Below, one piece after another: positions 1,867-15,279 of a DNA stretch of 64,000 nt. The notes under the pieces are model-generated. The model did no database searches. It had not been told where the DNA came from and was given only the letters and a program-made list of their open reading frames with translations. The stretch covers positions 14,201-78,200 of the forward strand of contig CAVRUI010000001.1 of assembly GCA_963724345.1 (NCBI GenBank), in the 5' to 3' direction. Positions within the stretch are counted from its first letter, which is position 1. Each line of letters opens with the position of its first letter. Made by a program: the position numbers and the translations under genes. The stretch is from an uncultured Chloroflexia bacterium (lineage in GTDB: Bacteria > Chloroflexota > Anaerolineae > Anaerolineales > RBG-16-64-43).

Positions 1867-2937
1867 TTATCCGCGCCAGCGGTGATAGAAGTAATTCAGG
1901 AGCGGCACGAACTCGCCGGTTGCCTTCCGGTTGCCGGCGGCAGTCGGATGGCTGTCGCCGTTCTCGGCGTAGGCGGAGAGGTTGCCCCCCTGATCGGCCG
2001 TGTATTCCACGAGCCCGTTGCGGATCCGGTGATGGTTGCCGCCGCCGGCATCCAGATCGTTGGTGTTCGGATCGCCGCCGTTGGAGGTCAGCACGTTGTA
2101 GAAATCGAATACGGCGACGTTGGTATGCGGGTACGACGCCAGCCACTCTTCGGCCAGCCAGCGGTTGAATGCCCGGGCATTGGCGGCCTGTTCGGGTGAG
2201 GATTCGAGAAGCGGCGGCGCGGTGATGACGATGAAGAGCTTGTCCGTGTGCGCGGAAAAATATTCCAGCAGGTCGGCGTAGATCCGCTTGGCGTTGGCGA
2301 CGGTGTGATATCCGGATCCGCTGTCCATGCCCTGAAGCGGATTTTCACCGGATGTGGGCGGATCGCCGGGATTGCCCTCCAGCGCGGAGTTGGGGAAACA
2401 GGACTTGAACATCACGATTTCGTTTTCGCCGCCGGGATCGCTCTCCCGCCGCGCGTATTCCGCATGCGGTTCGCTCTCAGCGTAGACGGCTTGCATGATG
2501 GCCCCGCTCGACGGCCCGAGGAACCAGTTCCACCACTGGCCGATGTCGGTGTGATCGCCGATCACGCTGCCGATTGAAGGAGTTTCCGGGCCCCAGCCGT
2601 AGTTGGTGTCGCTGACAAAGTAGTTGTTATCCGCCAGGGCCTGCCCCAATCCGCCGCTCCAGTCCGCCAGCCAGTTTTCGCCGCTGGAGTGGTGGATGAA
2701 AATCAGTTTGACGGTCTCCGCGGGAGGGGATGAGTTGATCCAGTCGGAACCCTGCGGGGATTCGGGGGAATTCTCCACCGGCATCTCCGTCGCATCGGCG
2801 GGCGTGTTTTCCATGGAAACGGCAGGTTCGGGAGTTTCGGCGGATGGACTGGATCGACCATCGGTACCGACAGGCGGTTGGAAATTACACGCCGGGAGAA
2901 GAACCAGGACGATGGGGATTAATCGCATCCAGCGCAT
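1867..2937 (-). CDS. Lipoprotein, SGNH/GDSL-like hydrolase fold
   Basis: GGAGG RBS; lipobox LLPAC; Pro/Thr linker; FIHHSSG, FKSCFP and C-terminal DSHP motifs. Confidence 0.65.
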   Translation of the reverse strand: MRWMRLIPIVLVLLPACNFQPPVGTDGRSSPSAETPEPAVSMENTPADATEMPVENSPESPQGSDWINSSPPAETVKLIFIHHSSGENWLADWSGGLGQALADNNYFVSDTNYGWGPETPSIGSVIGDHTDIGQWWNWFLGPSSGAIMQAVYAESEPHAEYARRESDPGGENEIVMFKSCFPNSALEGNPGDPPTSGENPLQGMDSGSGYHTVANAKRIYADLLEYFSAHTDKLFIVITAPPLLESSPEQAANARAFNRWLAEEWLASYPHTNVAVFDFYNVLTSNGGDPNTNDLDAGGGNHHRIRNGLVEYTADQGGNLSAYAENGDSHPTAAGNRKATGEFVPLLNYFYHRWRG

Positions 2938-3062
2938 GCGGCCTCCAAGGTGATGAATGTTCCGATTATATACGCGAACTGTCACCCCCTATCCCTGGGG
3001 CTTCATACTATAATGAAATCCCAACAGTTGCCGCCACCCCCAGGGTCAAGGAAGATAAAACG

Positions 3063-6000
3063 ATGGGAATGGATTCCGACAGCGCTCCGCGCCCCGCCGA
3101 CATCTCCACTTGCGAATCCGTCCCGATCCTGCGGCCCCGTCCGGCGGGAAAGCGCCGCAGCCAGTTCCGAATCCTCGTCTTTTCGCTGATAACCGCCGCC
3201 GGTTTCGCCTCCCCGGCCGCTGCAACTTCTCCCGCCTGGGCGGCACCGCGGCTCACCCCGGGCGTGATCGATCCGCCGACCGTCAGCTTGAATGTTCCGG
3301 CAACGGCGATGATCGGTTCAAACGTTATCTTCACCGCATCCTTCGATAACAACGATCCGGAGAACGAAACCGGATACGGCCCATTCCTGGAATTGATCAT
3401 CCCGCGCACCGGGGCGGACGGCGCAGGCGCGGCGACGGACGACGGGCTGGGAACGACCACGATCTCCGCCACGATCTTTGGAAATCCCATCCCGGCGCGG
3501 GATTTCTACCGGGTGACCTTCAACGCGGGCGGAACGGCAACCCACCCGATCGCCCGCAATGCGGCCGGCACCCTCATCACCGTCAGCGGAACGCCCGGCG
3601 ACGAACTGGTGGTCATCCGCCTGCCGTTCGGCAGTTTCTCGCCGGACCAGCCGCCCGCAACGGTGGCGATGACGGTCAACATGAGCAACCTCGCCGATCT
3701 CGGTTACGGGCTCGCCATCCGGGCGCGCGGCGGGTACGAGTTCGGGTTTACGCCGCTGGATGATTGGTGCTGCGGCGACCCGGCCAGTGCGACGCTGAGC
3801 GGCTACACCTCCGGATCGGTCACCCCGACTCTGCTCACGCTCGCCAAAGCCTACGCCGGCCCGGCGGACGTCTCCGCCGAGACGGCGACCGGTCCGAATT
3901 ACCCGCGGCAATACTCGGTCACGGTGGACATCGCCCAGGGCCAAACGATCACCGATCTGCGCATCACCGACCAACTGCCCAATAACCTGGAATACGTCGG
4001 ATTGGATTCGGCCACTCCGGGATACATCCTGGAAGACCAGCCTTTGGCCGGCGGGGCCCGCAATCCGCCCGATAACGACCTGATCCTGCGCTGGGCGTCG
4101 GTCACCGGCGGCGCGGGAACCACCGACGCCGCGGCGGCGTTCTCCTTTATTGTGCCGCGCGACGACGCCGACGGCGCGCGGGTGATCGATCCCGCCGGCG
4201 GCGTCGCGGTATCCTCCTGCAACAACGCCCTGGCGTCCGGGTCGTGGACTCCGATCGATGCGCGCGATGCCGTCCAGGCCGTCTCCATCGATCCGCCCGG
4301 CTGCGAGCATACGCTCATCGACCGTTCGCTCGCCGTGCAGAAAAGCCACGCCAATATCACCGACGGCAGCAACTCGCCCGGCGACCGGATCGATTACACG
4401 CTGGAGATCCAGGTCTCGGATTTCTTCGCCTTCGACCAGGTCGTCCTCACCGATATCCTTTCGGACGGCCAGCACTTCGACGTCGACCCGGCTTTCCCGC
4501 CCACCCTGGAGGTGAACGGGAACGGATATGCTCTGGCGGCAGCCGCCTTCGCCCCCGCCAACTTCACGGTTGATACTTCGCGGATCGACCTGACCGACGG
4601 GCCGCCGCCTCCACTGGTGGAAAATCCGGCGACCGACGGCACCACCCTTTTGACTTTCCGCGTCTCCGACGAGATCATCACCCGCGGCCAGAACGGGCGG
4701 ATGGTCGGCGGCTGCGTGAATCCGGCCGGCGGCACCCCCAACCCCGATTGCTCCTACAACGACGGCGGAACCACCGCGGTCATCCATTTCTACGCCATCA
4801 TCCAGGAAAGCTTCACCGATAACTATCCTTCGGGAGATTGGAGCGTCGATCAGGGGGACGAATTTAACAACAACGCCATGATCGACGGGCGCCTGCTCGA
4901 TACCGATTTGTTCACCCCCGGGCCGAATGTCACCGACGACGCGGCGGAAACCTTTGCCATTGGAACCGGGTCGCTCACCAAGCGGATCTATGCCATCAAC
5001 GGCAGCACCTCCTTCTCCACGCCGGCCCGGATCCAGCCCGGCGATTCGGTCACCTACCGCATCACCTACGTGATGCCGACCAGCGACGAGGAAAACCTCG
5101 AGTTCGCCGATTACATGCCGAAACCCATTTTCTTCGTCGCGGATCCCGACGCCGACGACTCCCCGGCGCATGGCAACGGGCCAGCCTGGGGATTCGATCC
5201 GGTCGGGCAGAGCGGGCAGCCGGCCGTGATACCCGCCGCCGGGCGCGCCAACTTCGGTCCGTCGGACACTTTTTATGATTATTCGGGGATCGTCCCCGCC
5301 CTCAGCGCGAACGCCGCCAACAACCGGCTGGGCTTTTTCTACGGAGACTTCGACGATCCGCGCAGCCAATCCACTACGGTCGATATCCTCTTCACCGTCA
5401 CGGTCGCGACCGAGCCGTTCGCCGACAGCATGTACCTGACCAACCAGGCGCATGCGATCGAAGGCAGCACCAACGCCGGCGAGGTCGGAGCGGATTCCAT
5501 CGTCCAATTGATCCTGACCGAACCGGTTCTCTCCTCGACCAAGGGCGTGGTCTGGACGAGCAATCCCGACAACGTGTTCACCCCGGCCGGCCGCGGGCCG
5601 GCGGGCATTACTTTCCTGGCGCCGGGTTCGGCGCCGCGCTGGAGCGGGACGATCCGCTCCGGGCCGCCCGGCGGCCTGCGCGGCAACCCGATCAACAGCA
5701 ACGTGCGGGACGTGGACGCCGGCGATACGGTGACCTTCGCGATCACGATCGAAAATACCGGCACCAGTCTGAAGGGCGCCTTCGACCTTCAGATCCGCGA
5801 CCTCCTCCAGACTCAATATCAGATTCCCGGCACGGGATTGAACCTTCAGGTGTATTACGGCAACGGCACCGGGCCGATCGCATACACCGGTATCGCCGCG
5901 CCGGGGGATTGCACCGGCTCCTGGCCCGGCGATCCCTGCGGACCGGATGGCACGGCCGATACCGCCGACGACCTTTTCGGCTGGGGAATCGAGCTGATCG

Positions 6001-9000
6001 ATCCGGTCGGGTCGGGCGTGTGCCAGGCGCACGACCCGAACCTGGGGAACAACGTCATCCTCATCACCTACGATCTGGAGATCCGCACCGGCGTGGCGCC
6101 CGGCAACATCATCAACACCGAGACGCTGATCCGTTATGCCGGCGAGGAGGGCGGGCCGAACCACGTGCCGACTCCCTCGCCGGAGACCGACCAGGCCACC
6201 GCCACGATCAGCGGCGCGCCGGTCAAATATATTGTCGGCACCTCGGAACCGCACACCGGTTTTTCGGGCGTGGAGCAGGCGGCGATCGGCGAAATCATCC
6301 GCTACCGGATCGTCGCGCGCATCCCGGAAAGCACCAGCGTCAATTTCCAATTCCGCGATCTTCTGCCGAACGGGCTGATCTTCCTCGATGACGGCACGGC
6401 GCGCGTGGCTTTCGTTTCCAATGGGGGGATTGCCTCCCTGGGTCGTGATAGTGTTCCCGCCATACCGAATGGGTGCAACCTTGCCGGCACTGCGGCGAAT
6501 GCGACCACCCCGGCGGTTCTCCCTTGTGCGCTGGATGATTGGAACTCCGGGAGCAGCAACAGCACGACCGCCGATCCGGATGCCTATGGCGCGGGGACCG
6601 ATGTGTATTTCAAGCTCGGCGATCTTGCCAATTCCGACCTGGACGACGACGGCGAATTCGTCGTCGTGGAATTCAACGCGCTCGTGCACAACCTGAGCGG
6701 CGCTCAGCAGAACGACTCGGGGGAAAATCTCGACAACAGCGTGCGCGCCTATGCCGGCGTCCCGCCGGTTCAAATCGGCAACGATTTGCCCGCGCTGCGC
6801 GTCCGGGTGGTGGAGCCGTTCCTGACCCTCGACAAAACCCACTCCGCCCTGGGCATCACGGTGGATGCGGGCGATACGGTCACCTACTCGGCGACGATCA
6901 CCAACGACGGCAGCGCGCCGACCAACAGCACCGCCTCCGCCTTCGACGTGGACTTCACGGACACTCCCCCGGCGGCATATTTGACATTGAACCTGGCATC
7001 CGTCGGCGTGTCGGCGACAGGCGGAGCGACGGGTGTGGTGAATGCTTCATCCGGCAATACCGTTCACTATCACCGATCGGGTCCATGCCGGTCGGGAGCC
7101 AGGTGATCATCACGTATCAGGCCGCGGTTTCCATGAACGCCACCCCCGGCCAGACGATCGACAACGATGCCGAGGTGCTCTGGACATCGCTGCCCGGTCC
7201 GCGGGGGACGGGCGATCAGACCCCCGGCCTGCCCGGGACGGGAACCGGGGAGCGCGACGGCTCGAACGGCCCGGCGGGGAACCCCAACGATTACGACCGG
7301 ACGGATATCGCCACGCTTGATATCCGCGATCCCATGTTCAGTAAATCCGTGGAAAGCACCTCCGCCGTGCACACGGCTGGGAACAACCTGGCCATCGGGG
7401 AAGTGGCCACCTTCGGGTTGCTGGTTACCCTTCCGGAGGGAACCACACCCACTCTGCAAGTCTTGGACGATCTGCCGGCCGGGCTCGCGTATGTCGATGG
7501 TTCGATGCAAATTATCACCCAAACCAATCCGCCGGCGACCTGCGGAAGCCTGAGCGCTGATTTCAACGGGACGCTTCCGGTCCCGGTTCTGACGATTACA
7601 CCCCCCGGCGGCGGCAGCGGCGCCAACCTGACCTTCGATTTCGGCGCCGTCACCGTCGCGGGCGATAATGTCGCCGGCAACAATTCCTTCCTGATCTGTT
7701 TCCAGGCGGTTCTCCTGAATGAATCCGGCAGCCAGGCCTCGCCGCCGCCGCTGACCAATACCGGAACCCTCTTCATCGGCCTGGATACCTTCACCGACAG
7801 CGAGGACCTCGCCGTCGTAGAGCCGACTCTGCGGATCGCCAAATCGGTCGATGACCCGAACCCCGCGCCCGGACAGGTCGTCACCTTCACCGTCGTGGTG
7901 GACCATGCCCCCGCCAGCGGCGCCACCGCCTTCGACGTCGAAATCTCCGACATGCTGCCCGCGGATCTGGCGCTGGACCTTGGGTCGGTTTCCTATGCCG
8001 CCTCCGGCGGATTAACGGGCATATACAACGGCTCGATCGGAAACCTGATGTTCTTCTCGGTGACGGAATTTCCCGCCGGGGGAAGCCTCACCATCACATA
8101 CCAGGCGATAGTGACCGCGCCCTTCGGCACGACGGTCAACAATACCGCCAACACCACCTGGAGCTCGCTGCCCGGCCTGAACGCCAACGAACGGACCGGC
8201 GCCGACGGGCCGGGCGGGGCGCTCAACGATTACGCCGCCTCCAGCAGTGCCCCGCTGAACACGGACCGCGACCTGGTTAAATCGCTGATCGCCGACAGCC
8301 ACCCGGCCCCGGTCACCGCGCTTCCGGATGTGTCGATCGGGGAAATTCTGACCTACCAACTGGTCCTCACCATCCCGCCGTCGTCCACCGACACGTATGC
8401 CGTCATCGACACGCTGGATTCGGGACTCGCGTTTGTGGATTGCGAAGACATCACCGGCGGCGCCGACCTGACCAGCTCGGCCATCAGCCTGAATACCGCC
8501 GGCAACTGCACCCCCGGCGGCGGACCCGGCGGCAATCCGCTCATCACCGGCTCGGGCGGGACGGTGGCATTCGATTTCGGCACGATCACGAACGCCCACG
8601 CGACCAATCCCGAGAGCATCACCATCCGCTACCGCGTCGTCGTCCTCGACACAACGGCCAACATCCGCGAGGTCACCCTGGCCAACGATGCGTTGATGCA
8701 ATGGTCGAGCGGAAGCATCCGCCGGCAGACGGCTCCGGTGCGGATCATCGAATCCGATTTGGGGCTGGAAAAAACCGTCGACCGGCCCTCGGCGGTCCCG
8801 TGGATGGTGGTGACCTACCGGATCCGGATCTTCCATACCACGGCCAGCCAGCTGGCGGCCTATGACGCCGTCATCAACGACATTCTGCCGGACGACCTGA
8901 CGTACGTGCCGGGATCGCTGAGCTTTGTACCCGGAAGCGGCGTAGCGCCCACTTTGTTGGACGATACCGCCATCGATCCAGGCACCGGTAATCTTGTCAT

Positions 9001-9769
9001 GCACGCCGAATGGGATGCGCTTCCGCTCGGTCAGGAAGCCGCGATCCAATTCCAAGTCACCTTCGGCCCGATCCCGGCCGGCTCCAGCGTGGTCAACACG
9101 GCCAGCGCGGAATGGACCAGCCTGCCGGGGGATGTGCCTGCGCCCCCCAGCACGTATCTCTCGGTTTTCAACCAGCCCTATTCCCACGAGCGGCGGTACG
9201 ATCCGCTTAACCCGGCCGATATCTACCGGGTCACCTCAGCCGCAACTGTCGGCCTGCTTTCCCTTCCGGAGACGGGTTTCGCGCCGGATCGGGTGACCGG
9301 CCTGCCCGCTCAGCCGGCCGGAAAACAGTACACCAAGCTGGGCGACCTGCGGCTGTACATCCCGCGGTTGGATAAAAATCTGCTGGTGGTCGGTGTGCCG
9401 ATTGCAAAGGACGGATGGGATCTGACCTGGCTGTGGGACCAGGCCGGGTATCTGGAAGGGACGGCGTTCCCCGGAACGGCCGGCAACTCCGTCATCACGG
9501 CGCATGTCTACCTGCCGAGCGGATTGCCCGGCCCGTTCGCGAACCTGAATACGCTGCGCTGGGGGGACCGGATTTTCCTTACGATCAACGGGCAGCGCTA
9601 CATCTATGAAGTGCGCACCAACTCCAGCGTCTCGCCCGCCGATACCTCGCCCTTCCGCCATGAGGAGACACCCTGGCTGACGCTCGTCACCTGCCTCGGA
9701 TACGATCCGCGGACCGAGACCTACCGTTACCGCCAGGTCGCGCGGGCGGTGTTGATAGAGATCCGATAA
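3063..9769 (+). CDS. Giant secreted isopeptide-forming/DUF11-repeat adhesin fused to LPETG and a C-terminal sortase (frameshift near 7065-7080)
   Basis: ORFs 2844-7106 and 6539-9769 join as ...GNTVTITIGSMPVGS if 2 single bases are removed; signal peptide; repeated K..GD.VTY.(I/L)...D.LP modules; LPETG at 9263-9277; sortase ITAH (His 9503), TLVTC (Cys 9692), downstream Arg. Confidence 0.85.
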
Positions 9770-13041: not shown

Positions 13042-13647
13042 CTATAGTTTCGGAAACACCCTCCCGGTCCGTTTCCTATACTCCCGGTACTCCTCTCCGA
13101 ACGCATCGATCATCATTTGCTCCTCGCGCGGCACCCGCACGAGGAACACGGCGCACATCAGCACCCCGAAGGCGACGAGAATCCAATTGGCGGAAACCAG
13201 CGCCAGGCCGCCCGTCCAGACGATCATCCCCGAATAGAGCGGATGTCGCATCCGGGCGTACGGCCCCGTTGTCACCAAACGATGCTTTTCCCGCAACTGC
13301 AGCTGGGGCGACCATTCTTTTCCCAGAGCGATCTGAGCCCAAATCCAAAGGCCGAGGCCGACCAGTCCGAGGAAGAATCCCGCCCAACGGATGATGCCCG
13401 GGATCGGGATGGAGAGCGCGGCCAGCCAGGCCGGCTGGAGGGCAAAGGCAGCCAACAAGCCGACGACCAAAAAGCCTCCGAGGACACGGACGAGGAACGC
13501 CGCCATCCCTTCGCGTTTGACGGCGGCGCGGTCGGGCATCACCCTTTCCCCGGCCAGCCGGACCCGCAGCGTGAAAACGATGCGCATCACCATCACGCCC
13601 AGGATGAGAACCCAAAAAAGAATTAGGAATAGTTGTTCGGATGCCAT
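13042..13647 (-). CDS. Isoprenylcysteine carboxyl methyltransferase (ICMT/PEMT) family protein
   Basis: HRLVTTGPYARMRHPLYSG and REEQMM...FGEEYREY. Confidence 0.9.
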   Translation of the reverse strand: MASEQLFLILFWVLILGVMVMRIVFTLRVRLAGERVMPDRAAVKREGMAAFLVRVLGGFLVVGLLAAFALQPAWLAALSIPIPGIIRWAGFFLGLVGLGLWIWAQIALGKEWSPQLQLREKHRLVTTGPYARMRHPLYSGMIVWTGGLALVSANWILVAFGVLMCAVFLVRVPREEQMMIDAFGEEYREYRKRTGRVFPKL

Positions 13648-13827
13648 AGACACCTCTTTTATTCCCAATCAGATCGTCATGCCTGCGCCTGCCCTCCGCG
13701 TATCGCATCCCGGCACTCGATCCTGGTTTAGGAGTGGGGATGATCGCGAAGCGAGGGTGCCCTTGGCAGGCATCCACGAAATCTTGTCGAACCGGAAGGG
13801 CGATCCATTGGATCGCCCTCTACACGA

Positions 13828-14517
13828 TCACCAGATTCCCGGCACAAGCCGCGCGGTATTCCGGCCGTAGGCTTCCCATTCCGCGCCGAACTCGTTTTTC
13901 AACAGCGCTTCCTCGTCGTGAATGCGCAGGAGCAGTATGGCGAGGATGACCGGCGCGGCGGCCAGGCCGATCCAGGACCGGAAGGCCAGGGAGAAACCGG
14001 CGGTGAGAAGAATAATTCCCAGATAGCGGGGATGGCGGATCCAACGGAACGGTCCGGACGTGATCAGGTGATGATCTTTTTGGATGGTCACTTCGGGGGA
14101 GTATTGTTTGCCGAGCGCCAGCCCCGACCAATAAATGAATCCATAGGCGGCGGCGCAGAGCACGGCGCCGATCCAGCGGAGGACGGCGCCTTCGGCGAGC
14201 GTCCCGATCCCGCGCCGGTCGAAAAAGGGGATCGCCAGCAGCGCGAGATACAGCCCGGTTACCAGCCCGATCCGGACGACGGTTTCCCGCCGGTTGAGTT
14301 TGGATTCATCGCCCTTGCCGCCGCGAATCCCTTCCGTCCCGGAAATCGCCTGGATGCCCACGGCCGCCGCGAACAATCCGACCGCTGCGGCATACCCCGT
14401 TCTGGGCGCGAGGGAGAAGAACCCGCCCAAATCCGCGAGCCCCCATCCGAGGAGCGGCAGTCCGAGATAGATCAGCACTGTGGCAACAAAGAATAAAAAA
14501 GCGCGGAGATATTTCAT
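13828..14517 (-). CDS. ICMT/PEMT family protein
   Basis: HHLITSGPFRWIRHPRYLG and EEALL...FGAEWEAY...RLVPGIW. Confidence 0.9.
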   Translation of the reverse strand: MKYLRAFLFFVATVLIYLGLPLLGWGLADLGGFFSLAPRTGYAAAVGLFAAAVGIQAISGTEGIRGGKGDESKLNRRETVVRIGLVTGLYLALLAIPFFDRRGIGTLAEGAVLRWIGAVLCAAAYGFIYWSGLALGKQYSPEVTIQKDHHLITSGPFRWIRHPRYLGIILLTAGFSLAFRSWIGLAAAPVILAILLLRIHDEEALLKNEFGAEWEAYGRNTARLVPGIW

Positions 14518-14565: not shown

Positions 14566-15279
14566 TTACCAAATCCCGGGAACGAGGCGGTAAGCCACCT
14601 CTTTGGCGTACTCCTTGTATCCGGCCAGCTCGTTTTGGAGCATGCGATCCTCGAGCGCGGTCCGGACGATCATGCATGCCGCGGCCATGGCGGCGGGGAT
14701 CAGCGACCACAGGGATCCCAAAAGGATGGAAGTGCCCGGGGATTGCAGGATGGCGCCGATATATCCGGGGTGCCGGACGAATTGATACGGCCCGGTCCGG
14801 CAGACCGTCTGGCCGCGGTCGCTTTGGATGCGCGCGGCGGTGGAGAAATAGGCGTTGGAGATCATCGCCCAGCTGAAAAGCGCCATGCCGGCCGCGAACA
14901 CCACGCCCCCGGCGATATTCCACGCCGGTCCCAATCCGCGGGTCCAGCCGAAACGCGCATCCAGGCCGGCCACGATCGGGACCGCGAGGTAATACATGAT
15001 TCCCCACAACCCGCCGACCATCTTGTCCCAATTCTTGAATTCCTTGGGGCGACCGCGTTCGGCGATGGTCTCAAGGCCGTTGCGCAGCATGAAGACCCCG
15101 TTGATGAGTATGACGGCGAGGTTAATCCCAAGGAAGATCCAGGCTCCGGTCCAATCCAGGCGTCCGGCGGCGGCAAACAGGATTGCGCCCTGAAGGGCAA
15201 GCACGACGAAGACGGTGACCATGCGGGTGACGGCCGCCGCCACGAGGTTGGATCGCTCCGGAGACGTTCGGGTATCCAT
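14566..15279 (-). CDS. ICMT/PEMT family protein
   Basis: TGPYQFVRHPGYIG and EDRMLQNELAGYKEY...RLVPGIW. Confidence 0.9.
   Translation of the reverse strand: MDTRTSPERSNLVAAAVTRMVTVFVVLALQGAILFAAAGRLDWTGAWIFLGINLAVILINGVFMLRNGLETIAERGRPKEFKNWDKMVGGLWGIMYYLAVPIVAGLDARFGWTRGLGPAWNIAGGVVFAAGMALFSWAMISNAYFSTAARIQSDRGQTVCRTGPYQFVRHPGYIGAILQSPGTSILLGSLWSLIPAAMAAACMIVRTALEDRMLQNELAGYKEYAKEVAYRLVPGIW

Follow-up and report, generated by a model that had tools for sequence, protein, structure and literature searches.

We analyzed a 64,000-nucleotide window of a metagenome assembly from an uncultured bacterium of the Anaerolineales (GenBank GCA_963724345.1, contig CAVRUI010000001.1, positions 14,201 to 78,200), in which the plus-strand gene at 3063–9769 is predicted to encode a giant surface protein that carries an LPETG sorting motif and, closely behind it, a sortase domain of its own. 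Its features are listed in Table 1. An earlier reading made from the letters alone (the original prediction) had proposed this architecture, and most of it was borne out. The translation gave a Sec-type signal peptide (residues 1–60, site AWA|AP) and placed LPETG, followed by Phe, where it had been read; a complete sortase domain follows about 25 residues on, with its His, TLVTC, and Arg (PF04203, 69.9 bits against a cut-off of 26.6, profile positions 1–124 of 125). The pilin-like modules that had been noted between them were likewise recovered (TIGR04226, the isopeptide-forming fimbrial domain, 62.7 and 82.2 bits, cut-off 30; TIGR01451, 64.1 and 63.6 bits, cut-off 24; PF01345 or DUF11, 39 and 80.9 bits, cut-off 24.6), and the hydropathy peak of the protein is its signal peptide, with no membrane helix or basic tail past the motif. 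The treatment of 3063–9769 as a single giant open reading frame (ORF) did not stand; the gene lies in two frames, and the frameshift between them had been left unmentioned.

Table 1. Features of the LPETG-sortase gene, in window coordinates
Feature	Position	Strand	Remarks
Sec-type signal peptide	3063..3242	+	Residues 1–60; n-region KRR, hydrophobic core FRILVFSLITAAGFA, ...SPAWA|AP site (translation)
Passenger, 5' part	3243..7067	+	N-terminal region without Pfam match, then immunoglobulin-like (Ig-like) stalk modules; collinear with residues 8–1326 of the G001 ortholog
Frameshift site	7068..7075	+	Eight bases against two codons in the G001 ortholog (tblastn and blastn); reading goes on in the 6539 frame
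Passenger, 3' part	7076..8755	+	More DUF11 and isopeptide-forming fimbrial-type modules; collinear with the G001 ortholog from residue 1329
Last DUF11 module	8756..9262	+	Final strand leads directly into LPETG (AlphaFold model)
LPETG sorting motif	9263..9277	+	Putative scissile bond between Thr (9272-9274) and Gly (9275-9277); Phe next
Conserved linker	9278..9352	+	FAPDRVTGLPAQPAGKQY...; predicted to dock on the sortase core
Sortase catalytic domain	9353..9754	+	PF04203; first residue is 25 after the LPETG Gly
Catalytic His	9503-9505	+	VITAHVY
TLVTC	9680-9694	+	Catalytic Cys 9692-9694
Catalytic Arg	9731-9733	+	YRYRQVAR
C-terminal end	9755..9769	+	Last four residues; stop 9767-9769

At the junction, the LPETG lies about 165 residues before the C terminus and continues as FAPDRVTG toward the sortase domain. 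A hydropathy scan found neither a hydrophobic helix nor a basic tail after the motif, and no membrane segment on either side of the sortase domain; the signal peptide is the most hydrophobic 19-residue window, and the only strongly hydrophobic stretch, of the entire protein. Enzymes of the sortase superfamily are normally anchored in the membrane by an adjoining helix, whereas the window domain has no flanking hydrophobic segment. The tail alone also scored 42.4 bits against TIGR01076 (cut-off 39.35). By its profile, its catalytic His, Cys, and Arg, and its predicted fold, the domain is a sortase, with a putative transpeptidase activity.

We used the last 178 residues as the query in a HMMER pass over 1.84 billion cluster representatives, which returned 5350 matches at E ≤ 1e-3 and 1314 at E ≤ 1e-30. 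The best 150 come from proteins of 187–5246 residues and lie at the extreme C terminus. From these we aligned the junctions of the 149 with a recognizable TLxTC anchor, adding the tail of the window protein itself for a total of 150 rows. Conservation of LPxTG before the sortase had been set beforehand as the refutation test of the original prediction, and the prediction clearly withstood it: Pro, Gly, and the following Phe are present in 150 of 150 rows and Thr in 148, with Leu (111 rows), Ala (14), Ile (10), or Val (3) at position 1. The catalytic columns read Cys 150, His 149, and Arg 148, so that [L/A/I]-P-x-T-G-F-A-P varies no more than the active-site residues do. Conservation extends into the linker, with the family consensus GFAP-[GDN]-[RVK]-[VI]-T-x-L-P-x-Q-P-x4-Y (A in 138 rows, P 145, T 136, L 112, P 126, Q 133, P 118, and Y 143). 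A hydrophobic 19-residue window (mean hydropathy >1.8) occurs within the last 170 residues of none of the 150 homologs, nearly all of which terminate 22–40 residues past the Cys. At the DNA level, 80 of 80 loci from GTDB-species genomes have the motif, as do 18 of 19 loci from relatives, where the one miss is truncated at the end of its contig.

The titles of the species-genome loci nearly all name Anaerolineales, Anaerolineae, or Chloroflexota, in keeping with the expectation that similar fusions would be found among Anaerolineae annotations. The database names are automatic: "sortase," "LPXTG-site transpeptidase family protein," "DUF11 domain-containing protein," "class F sortase," and "sortase domain-bontaining protein"; an ESM Atlas look-up returned "sortase/DUF11, Chloroflexota." In an even sample of 150 genomes across the phylum, strong matches occurred in 10 genomes, all of the window's order (families f14, nine of nine, and f15, one of three), and in none of the other 138. 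On these searches, the fused C-terminal module forms a large family confined to a single order. Among close genomes, 25 of 41 carry the fused type, in 1–11 copies each, and the window genome carries two. Two short family-bearing contigs are binned elsewhere, one of 3.8 kb as Acidithiobacillus ferrivorans (L036) and one of 8.4 kb as a Methanosarcinales archaeon (L066; cov_0.34 in its name). Misbinning of Anaerolineae contigs is the most likely explanation, rather than gene transfer.

The proteins that carry the module differ widely. Pfam and NCBIfam scans identified DUF11, DUF7507, GramPos_pilinBB, and TIGR04226 in the stalk modules of the 5' part of the window passenger, and the layout around its signal peptide is the same in the orthologs; the start codon of the window gene is uncertain, its frame being open from 2844. 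Across 26 full-length homologs with signal peptides, the passengers contain DUF7933, DUF7507, DUF11, FG-GAP, SdrD_B, SpaA, and Cadherin domains, and further Big_3_5, Big_1, Big_12, Chlam_PMP repeats, an ice-binding-like domain (Ice_binding), and Beta_helix; in 11 of the 26, Sortase is the sole Pfam domain. Sec-like signal peptides followed by unrelated mature N termini were seen in 78 homologs. We found no accessory or separate pilin genes beside the window gene, whose neighbors are UPF0047, PHP, ICMT, or ORFs without a Pfam match. Because the passengers are diverse and the N termini and neighbors unrelated, the pattern is that expected of a portable, general C-terminal sorting device, with a role comparable to that of LPXTG tails, rather than of a dedicated pilin-to-pilin reaction.

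In the roughly 2234-residue read-through product, 0.14 strict LPxTG motifs are expected from composition and two were seen. Both orthologs that we aligned keep the one ahead of the sortase. The other, an LPGTG at residue 1389, was considered as an internal sorting motif and put down to chance, as it is not conserved in those two orthologs. The N-terminal domain also holds an IPRTG pentapeptide (residues 113–117, window 3399–3413), conserved in the same two proteins, which is probably structural because it lies inside the conserved block ELIIPRTGADGAG. On the minus strand of the window, the ORFs 13042–13668, 13828–14517, and 14566–15279 code for membrane proteins whose ends are alike (...VPGIW / ...VFPKL). 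The product of the first belongs by its matches with the ICMT/PEMT methyltransferase families, and the trio looks like a tandem set of paralogs.

An AlphaFold2 model of 8756–9766, built on a 54-row alignment with LPETG at residues 170–174, reached a predicted local distance difference test score (pLDDT) of 92.4 and a predicted template modeling score (pTM) of 0.86. A strand at residues 157–167 stands just ahead of LPETG, and the LPETG coil and linker scored about 95–97. When the DUF11 module was left out of a second model (LPETG at residues 6–10; pLDDT 95.8, pTM 0.91), the linker still scored 95, and the first ten residues averaged 76. Because the confidence of the linker holds without the DUF11 module, the motif-linker segment is predicted to dock on the sortase core itself. 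The predicted fold is the eight-stranded β-barrel of sortases (Foldseek E 1.4e-9; VIA Z 17.9, root mean square deviation 2.5, 142 residues aligned to 3tbe_C), and its matches to solved sortases have Z scores of 17–18.

The VIA alignments of the short model separate the sortase classes by where they begin. Those to 15 of 17 class C entries start at model residue 1–5, so that LPETG is included, whereas those to 32 of 33 entries of classes A, D, E, and F start at residue 19–31. The exception is Bacillus anthracis SrtA, which we take to have an N-terminal appendage. By the range starts, model residue 1 corresponds to residue 44 of group B Streptococcus (GBS, S. agalactiae) SrtC1 and to residue 52 of S. 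pneumoniae SrtC1, and model residue 5 to residue 79 of Corynebacterium diphtheriae SrtA, so that LPETG would fall on about 49–53, 57–61, and 80–84, respectively. In the available text of the two sources consulted, these enzymes are described as having a lid, formed in GBS SrtC1 by residues 44–55 (anchors Leu-47 and Asp-49–Pro-50–Tyr-51; catalytic His-122, Cys-184, and Arg-193), in S. pneumoniae SrtC1 with the anchor Asp-58–Pro-59–Trp-60, and in C. diphtheriae SrtA by Pro-77–Ser-89 with Asp-81 and Trp-83 (PMC3166054; bioRxiv 10.1101/2023.02.23.529612). In crystal structures the class C lid "occupies the length of the groove" over the catalytic residues (PMC3166054).

The spacing in sequence is similar as well. 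LPETG stands 76–80 residues before the His and 139–143 before the Cys; the lid loop of Actinomyces oris SrtC2 (residues 104–108, with His-184 and Cys-246) stands 76–80 and 138–142 residues before them (PMC11131087). Because the range starts and the spacing agree, and because the lid covers the groove, the built-in LPxTG is predicted to occupy the place of the class C lid anchor, DP(W/F/Y), over the active site. The proposed check of whether the motif reaches the active site was answered indirectly: the models predict docking on the core (pLDDT about 95), and the structural alignments run the segment along the path of the class C lid. Within the family, the residue that shares most mutual information (0.36) with position 1 of the motif is model residue 297, in the β6/β7 loop; Leu occurs there in 0 of 16 APxTG variants versus 94 of 193 LPxTG variants. 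In class C enzymes, the β6/β7 loop forms a hydrophobic pocket for the lid anchor, according to the part of that work available to us (PMC3166054). The covariation is a suggestive hint.

The closest solved sequences to the window domain are all class C sortases (2xwg, 1.4e-8). The class C model NF033745 scored best among the NCBIfam class models (45.3–49.3 bits against a cut-off of 160), and no class model (C, D, E, F, or GN) reached its cut-off. We also considered assigning a class by the core fold; VIA Z scores for classes A, C, and E were tied within 1, so that the fold alone assigns none. We therefore file the domain, by its sequence, as a sortase of an unnamed clade nearest class C. It resembles the class C pilus sortases (S. 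agalactiae SrtC1, S. pneumoniae SrtC1, A. oris SrtC1 and SrtC2, and C. diphtheriae SrtA) in its predicted fold (Z 17.5–17.9) and in a predicted N-terminal segment over the active site at the same distance from His and Cys. It differs from them in that the lid path reads LPETG, a full substrate motif, with no DP(W/F/Y) anchor in the family segment, in lacking a membrane anchor at either end, in being the C terminus of its presumed substrate, and in having no pilin gene cluster.

The state of the gene copy in the window has to be considered before its product. The region of 6707 nucleotides is not a multiple of 3 in length and consists of two overlapping open frames, 2844..7106 and 6539..9769 (ORF listing); the frame of 3063 closes at 7106, and the remainder is read in the frame open from 6539 to the end at 9769. 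An intact ortholog of 2225 residues from the same genus (G001) maps by tblastn to 3066–7067 with its residues 8–1326 and, in the other frame, to 7076–9766 with its residues 1329–2225. Because the alignment switches frame there, the frameshift is a small insertion or deletion within 7068–7075. Seven public sequencing runs share words with 6800–7350 (best share 0.26), and contigs from three of them cover 6800–6936 and 7082–7350, not 7060–7080.

If the frameshift were real, the window copy would be a dead gene, from which only the 894-residue 3' product lacking a signal peptide, or nothing, is made. The two frames are present in the assembly, the site is not within a homopolymer run, and the 894-residue product alone is what a gene caller recorded. 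Against this, both halves are stop-free and about 74% identical to the intact ortholog over their full length, and the orthologs in five relatives are each one frame of 2225–2301 residues. The window genome (G000; 3.1 Mb, 3 contigs, 77.7% complete) carries indel errors: its essential rpoC (G000:C3:2149143-2153292) lies in six pieces matching the family model, over at least four frames. Such errors may also explain the low completeness despite only 3 contigs. Its rpoB is whole, in one frame of 1472 residues. Because the orthologs are single frames and rpoC is also split, the frameshift is probably an assembly error; we hold the dead gene to be improbable, a grade given independently of the mechanisms weighed below.

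The second family member of the same genome, on contig C3, also hops frames, inside a repeat. This LPETGFAPD-sortase protein (L003 5034–12522, minus strand, about G000:C3 255033–262521) consists of a 520-residue frame (SdrD-like, DUF11, sortase), preceded by a 1919-residue frame that ends in TPTETETPTRTH repeats. Because these repeats switch frame several times, a single giant gene has probably been split there by errors of assembly. The protein ends in ...GLPETGFAPDVVTDLPVQPEEKLY plus the sortase, with the same LPETGFAPD junction as the window gene.

From the architecture, conservation, portability, predicted docking, and class C affinity that we observed, we infer cleavage, its action in cis or in trans, and an acceptor as follows. 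The gene product would be a Sec-secreted, stalk-like surface protein of about 2230 residues that ends in an auto-sortase anchoring tag. The tag would consist of [L/A/I]PxTG-FAP, then about 18 residues of docked linker, then a sortase domain without a membrane anchor. After export, the sortase domain would fold with its own LPETG over the active site, where the class C lid sits. The Cys would then attack the Thr–Gly bond, in cis or on a sister molecule, and the passenger would be held as a thioester before being handed to an amine of the cell envelope, the likeliest acceptors being the stem peptide of peptidoglycan or some other polymer of the surface. The enzyme domain would turn over once and then be shed, with GFAP... 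as its new start. Such a tag would replace LPXTG, membrane helix, basic tail, and separate membrane sortase at once, behind many unrelated passengers of the Anaerolineales. We give about an even chance to the proposal that the module is a portable tag that cuts LPET|G in cis and moves its passenger to an envelope amine. The wider statement, that the Anaerolineales invented a single-chain, single-turnover tag of about 190 residues that cuts itself between Thr and Gly and attaches its cargo covalently through the new C terminus with neither anchor nor partner enzyme, falls just short of even.

The proposed protein shares with classical LPXTG wall-anchored proteins the signal peptide, the Ig-like isopeptide stalk modules, and an LPXTG near the C terminus; a folded sortase domain of about 160 residues stands in place of the hydrophobic helix and basic tail. 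Engineered relatives of the arrangement exist, as fusions of SrtA, LPXTG, and a target that cleave themselves (Mao 2004 as cited in PMC3614425) and as BISOP, a self-cleaving sortase fusion (PMC2901362). These too have enzyme and motif on one chain, in the order enzyme-motif-cargo, whereas the natural order is cargo-motif-enzyme. The C-terminal domains of the Hedgehog/HINT type form a thioester at their own junction, pass the N-terminal cargo to a nucleophile, and are discarded. The likeness to them is by analogy only; fold and chemistry are unrelated, and no homology is implied.

Several points weigh against the auto-sortase tag. The cleavage, the thioester, and the ligation product are predictions from sequence and model. 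The position "over the active site" is read from a predicted model by way of alignment ranges, in which just the two end residues are given. Khare et al. exchanged KDPYS for IPNTG in the lid of GBS SrtC1 and obtained a disordered motif and an unoccupied active site (PMC3166054), so that a place in the lid does not ensure binding. Beyond the scissile bond, G-F-A-P and the linker are strictly conserved, which is unusual for a substrate and would suit a purely structural lid equally. The covariation of position 1 did not withstand an independent-pair test (FastTree tree, 6 supported pairs, sign-test median p 0.25). A protein without a membrane anchor has no evident hold near its acceptor, and an enzyme domain used for a single turnover would be costly. 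The window's copy carries a frameshift, and most relatives also own a separate membrane-anchored sortase, which could do the cutting.

Some of these points would fit a pseudo-substrate lid, in which LPxTGFAP stays uncleaved and autoinhibitory like DP(W/F/Y), and the giant passenger is a stalk displaying, at a distance from the membrane, a working sortase that acts in trans on other proteins. The segment follows the path of the class C lid, GFAP and the linker past the scissile bond are as conserved as the motif, and the engineered IPNTG lid stayed out of the active site. That mutant places a sorting motif at exactly the position it has in the natural family; the family adds the invariant FAP...Y linker, whereas in the mutant the motif was disordered (PMC3166054, in the portion available). 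The segment is, however, a perfect consensus substrate rather than DP(W/F/Y), beside intact Cys, His, and Arg. The passengers are very diverse (ice-binding, β-helix, FG-GAP) and resemble cargo rather than stalks for one enzyme, and no partner substrates are encoded nearby. We consider a pseudo-substrate lid unlikely.

The original prediction had included self-polymerization, in which the protein's own sortase joins the LPET carboxyl to a Lys or the N terminus of the next subunit to form covalent fibers or a sheath. The nearest relatives in sequence and fold are class C sortases that polymerize pilins, the passenger carries isopeptide domains of the pilin type, and the Anaerolineae are filamentous. 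This branch found no support, as there is neither a conserved acceptor Lys of the pilin type nor a common mature N terminus. The Lys residues conserved across three orthologs sit at module starts, except for Lys-1184 of the passenger and a single Lys of the sortase linker. By sequence, those at module starts fit the position of intramolecular isopeptide lysines, with putative Lys-Asn/Asp bonds, and the N-terminal domain (residues 62–261) contains no Lys. Because mature N termini and passengers differ widely among family members, the family appears to have no common acceptor site, and self-polymerization is quite unlikely.

The separate sortases bear on the last alternative. The genomes of 41 relatives gave 41 matches at E ≤ 5.2e-36. 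Of these, 40 begin no later than the motif, and the remaining one is truncated at the end of its contig. After a clean gap in score, the matches that follow, at E ≥ 8e-23, begin only beyond the motif. The four weaker matches that we read (G031 twice, G022, and G035) have a membrane helix and a linker, then the sortase domain, and no LPxTG; a fused member at 40% identity retains LPETGF. The motif thus goes with the fused clade and with the loss of the membrane anchor. Most relatives have a separate sortase of about 318 residues with a membrane helix and no LPxTG, which scores best against the class D and E models, below their cut-offs; we did not find it in the window assembly (77.7% complete). 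At two loci (L026 and L027, in G001:C46 and G010:C65), this sortase adjoins an ORF that by eye resembles a gene of the LytR-CpsA-Psr (LCP) family of wall-polymer ligases. In an order-level relative (G031:C134:11072-27262), at least seven sortase-domain matches stand in a row, in frames of 330–2230 residues. The match read there (L110) has a membrane helix and no LPxTG, and the array looks like a tandem expansion of anchored sortases.

In the window genome, a 206-residue stop-to-stop frame on the minus strand of contig C3 has LPTTG, FGDSAG, a hydrophobic helix, and a tail ending in RQLRLSRVRR, which together form a classical sorting signal. Because such an ORF is encoded, the organism probably also has an ordinary sortase pathway. 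That a separate membrane-anchored sortase cleaves LPETG and anchors the passenger, the fused domain being freed as a soluble sortase or having another role, would draw on the anchored sortases of the relatives, with their LCP-like neighbor, and on the at least one classical ORF of the window genome, but we regard it as very unlikely, since the helix and basic tail that classical sorting needs for retention are both absent from the family, no separate sortase was found in the 77.7% of the genome that the window assembly holds, and the predicted docking of the motif on the fused domain and the joint conservation of motif and catalytic triad would be left unexplained.

In line with the statement that no functional description is known, the fusions carry names such as "sortase" or "DUF11 domain-containing protein," and we found no account of a natural LPXTG-sortase fusion in the literature searched, only the engineered analogs; subscription-only papers and supplements lay outside the search, so a prior mention is possible. 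Two surveys of adhesins and isopeptide domains, as far as their available text describes, confined their search for anchor motifs to the final 50 residues (PMC9210967, PMC12617251), and the window motif, about 165 residues from the end, falls outside that range. Taken as a whole, the family is a real, conserved, and probably functional new variant of the sortase system.

If the auto-sortase tag operates as proposed, the class C lid and the built-in substrate would be two versions of one structural element, and the fusion would offer a direct view of how a sortase holds its substrate in cis. Such a view was reported to be lacking for class C enzymes, the attempt with a motif in the lid having been unsuccessful (PMC3166054). 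The family could also yield a compact, self-ligating protein tag. In a bolder form of the proposal, the thioester would persist at the tip of the stalk as a covalent "harpoon" directed toward amines on other cells or surfaces. In the usual logic of sortases, a separate membrane enzyme meets a substrate retained in the membrane. A natural fusion would mean that covalent display at the surface can follow another logic, in a family that is abundant throughout one order of mostly uncultured filamentous bacteria.

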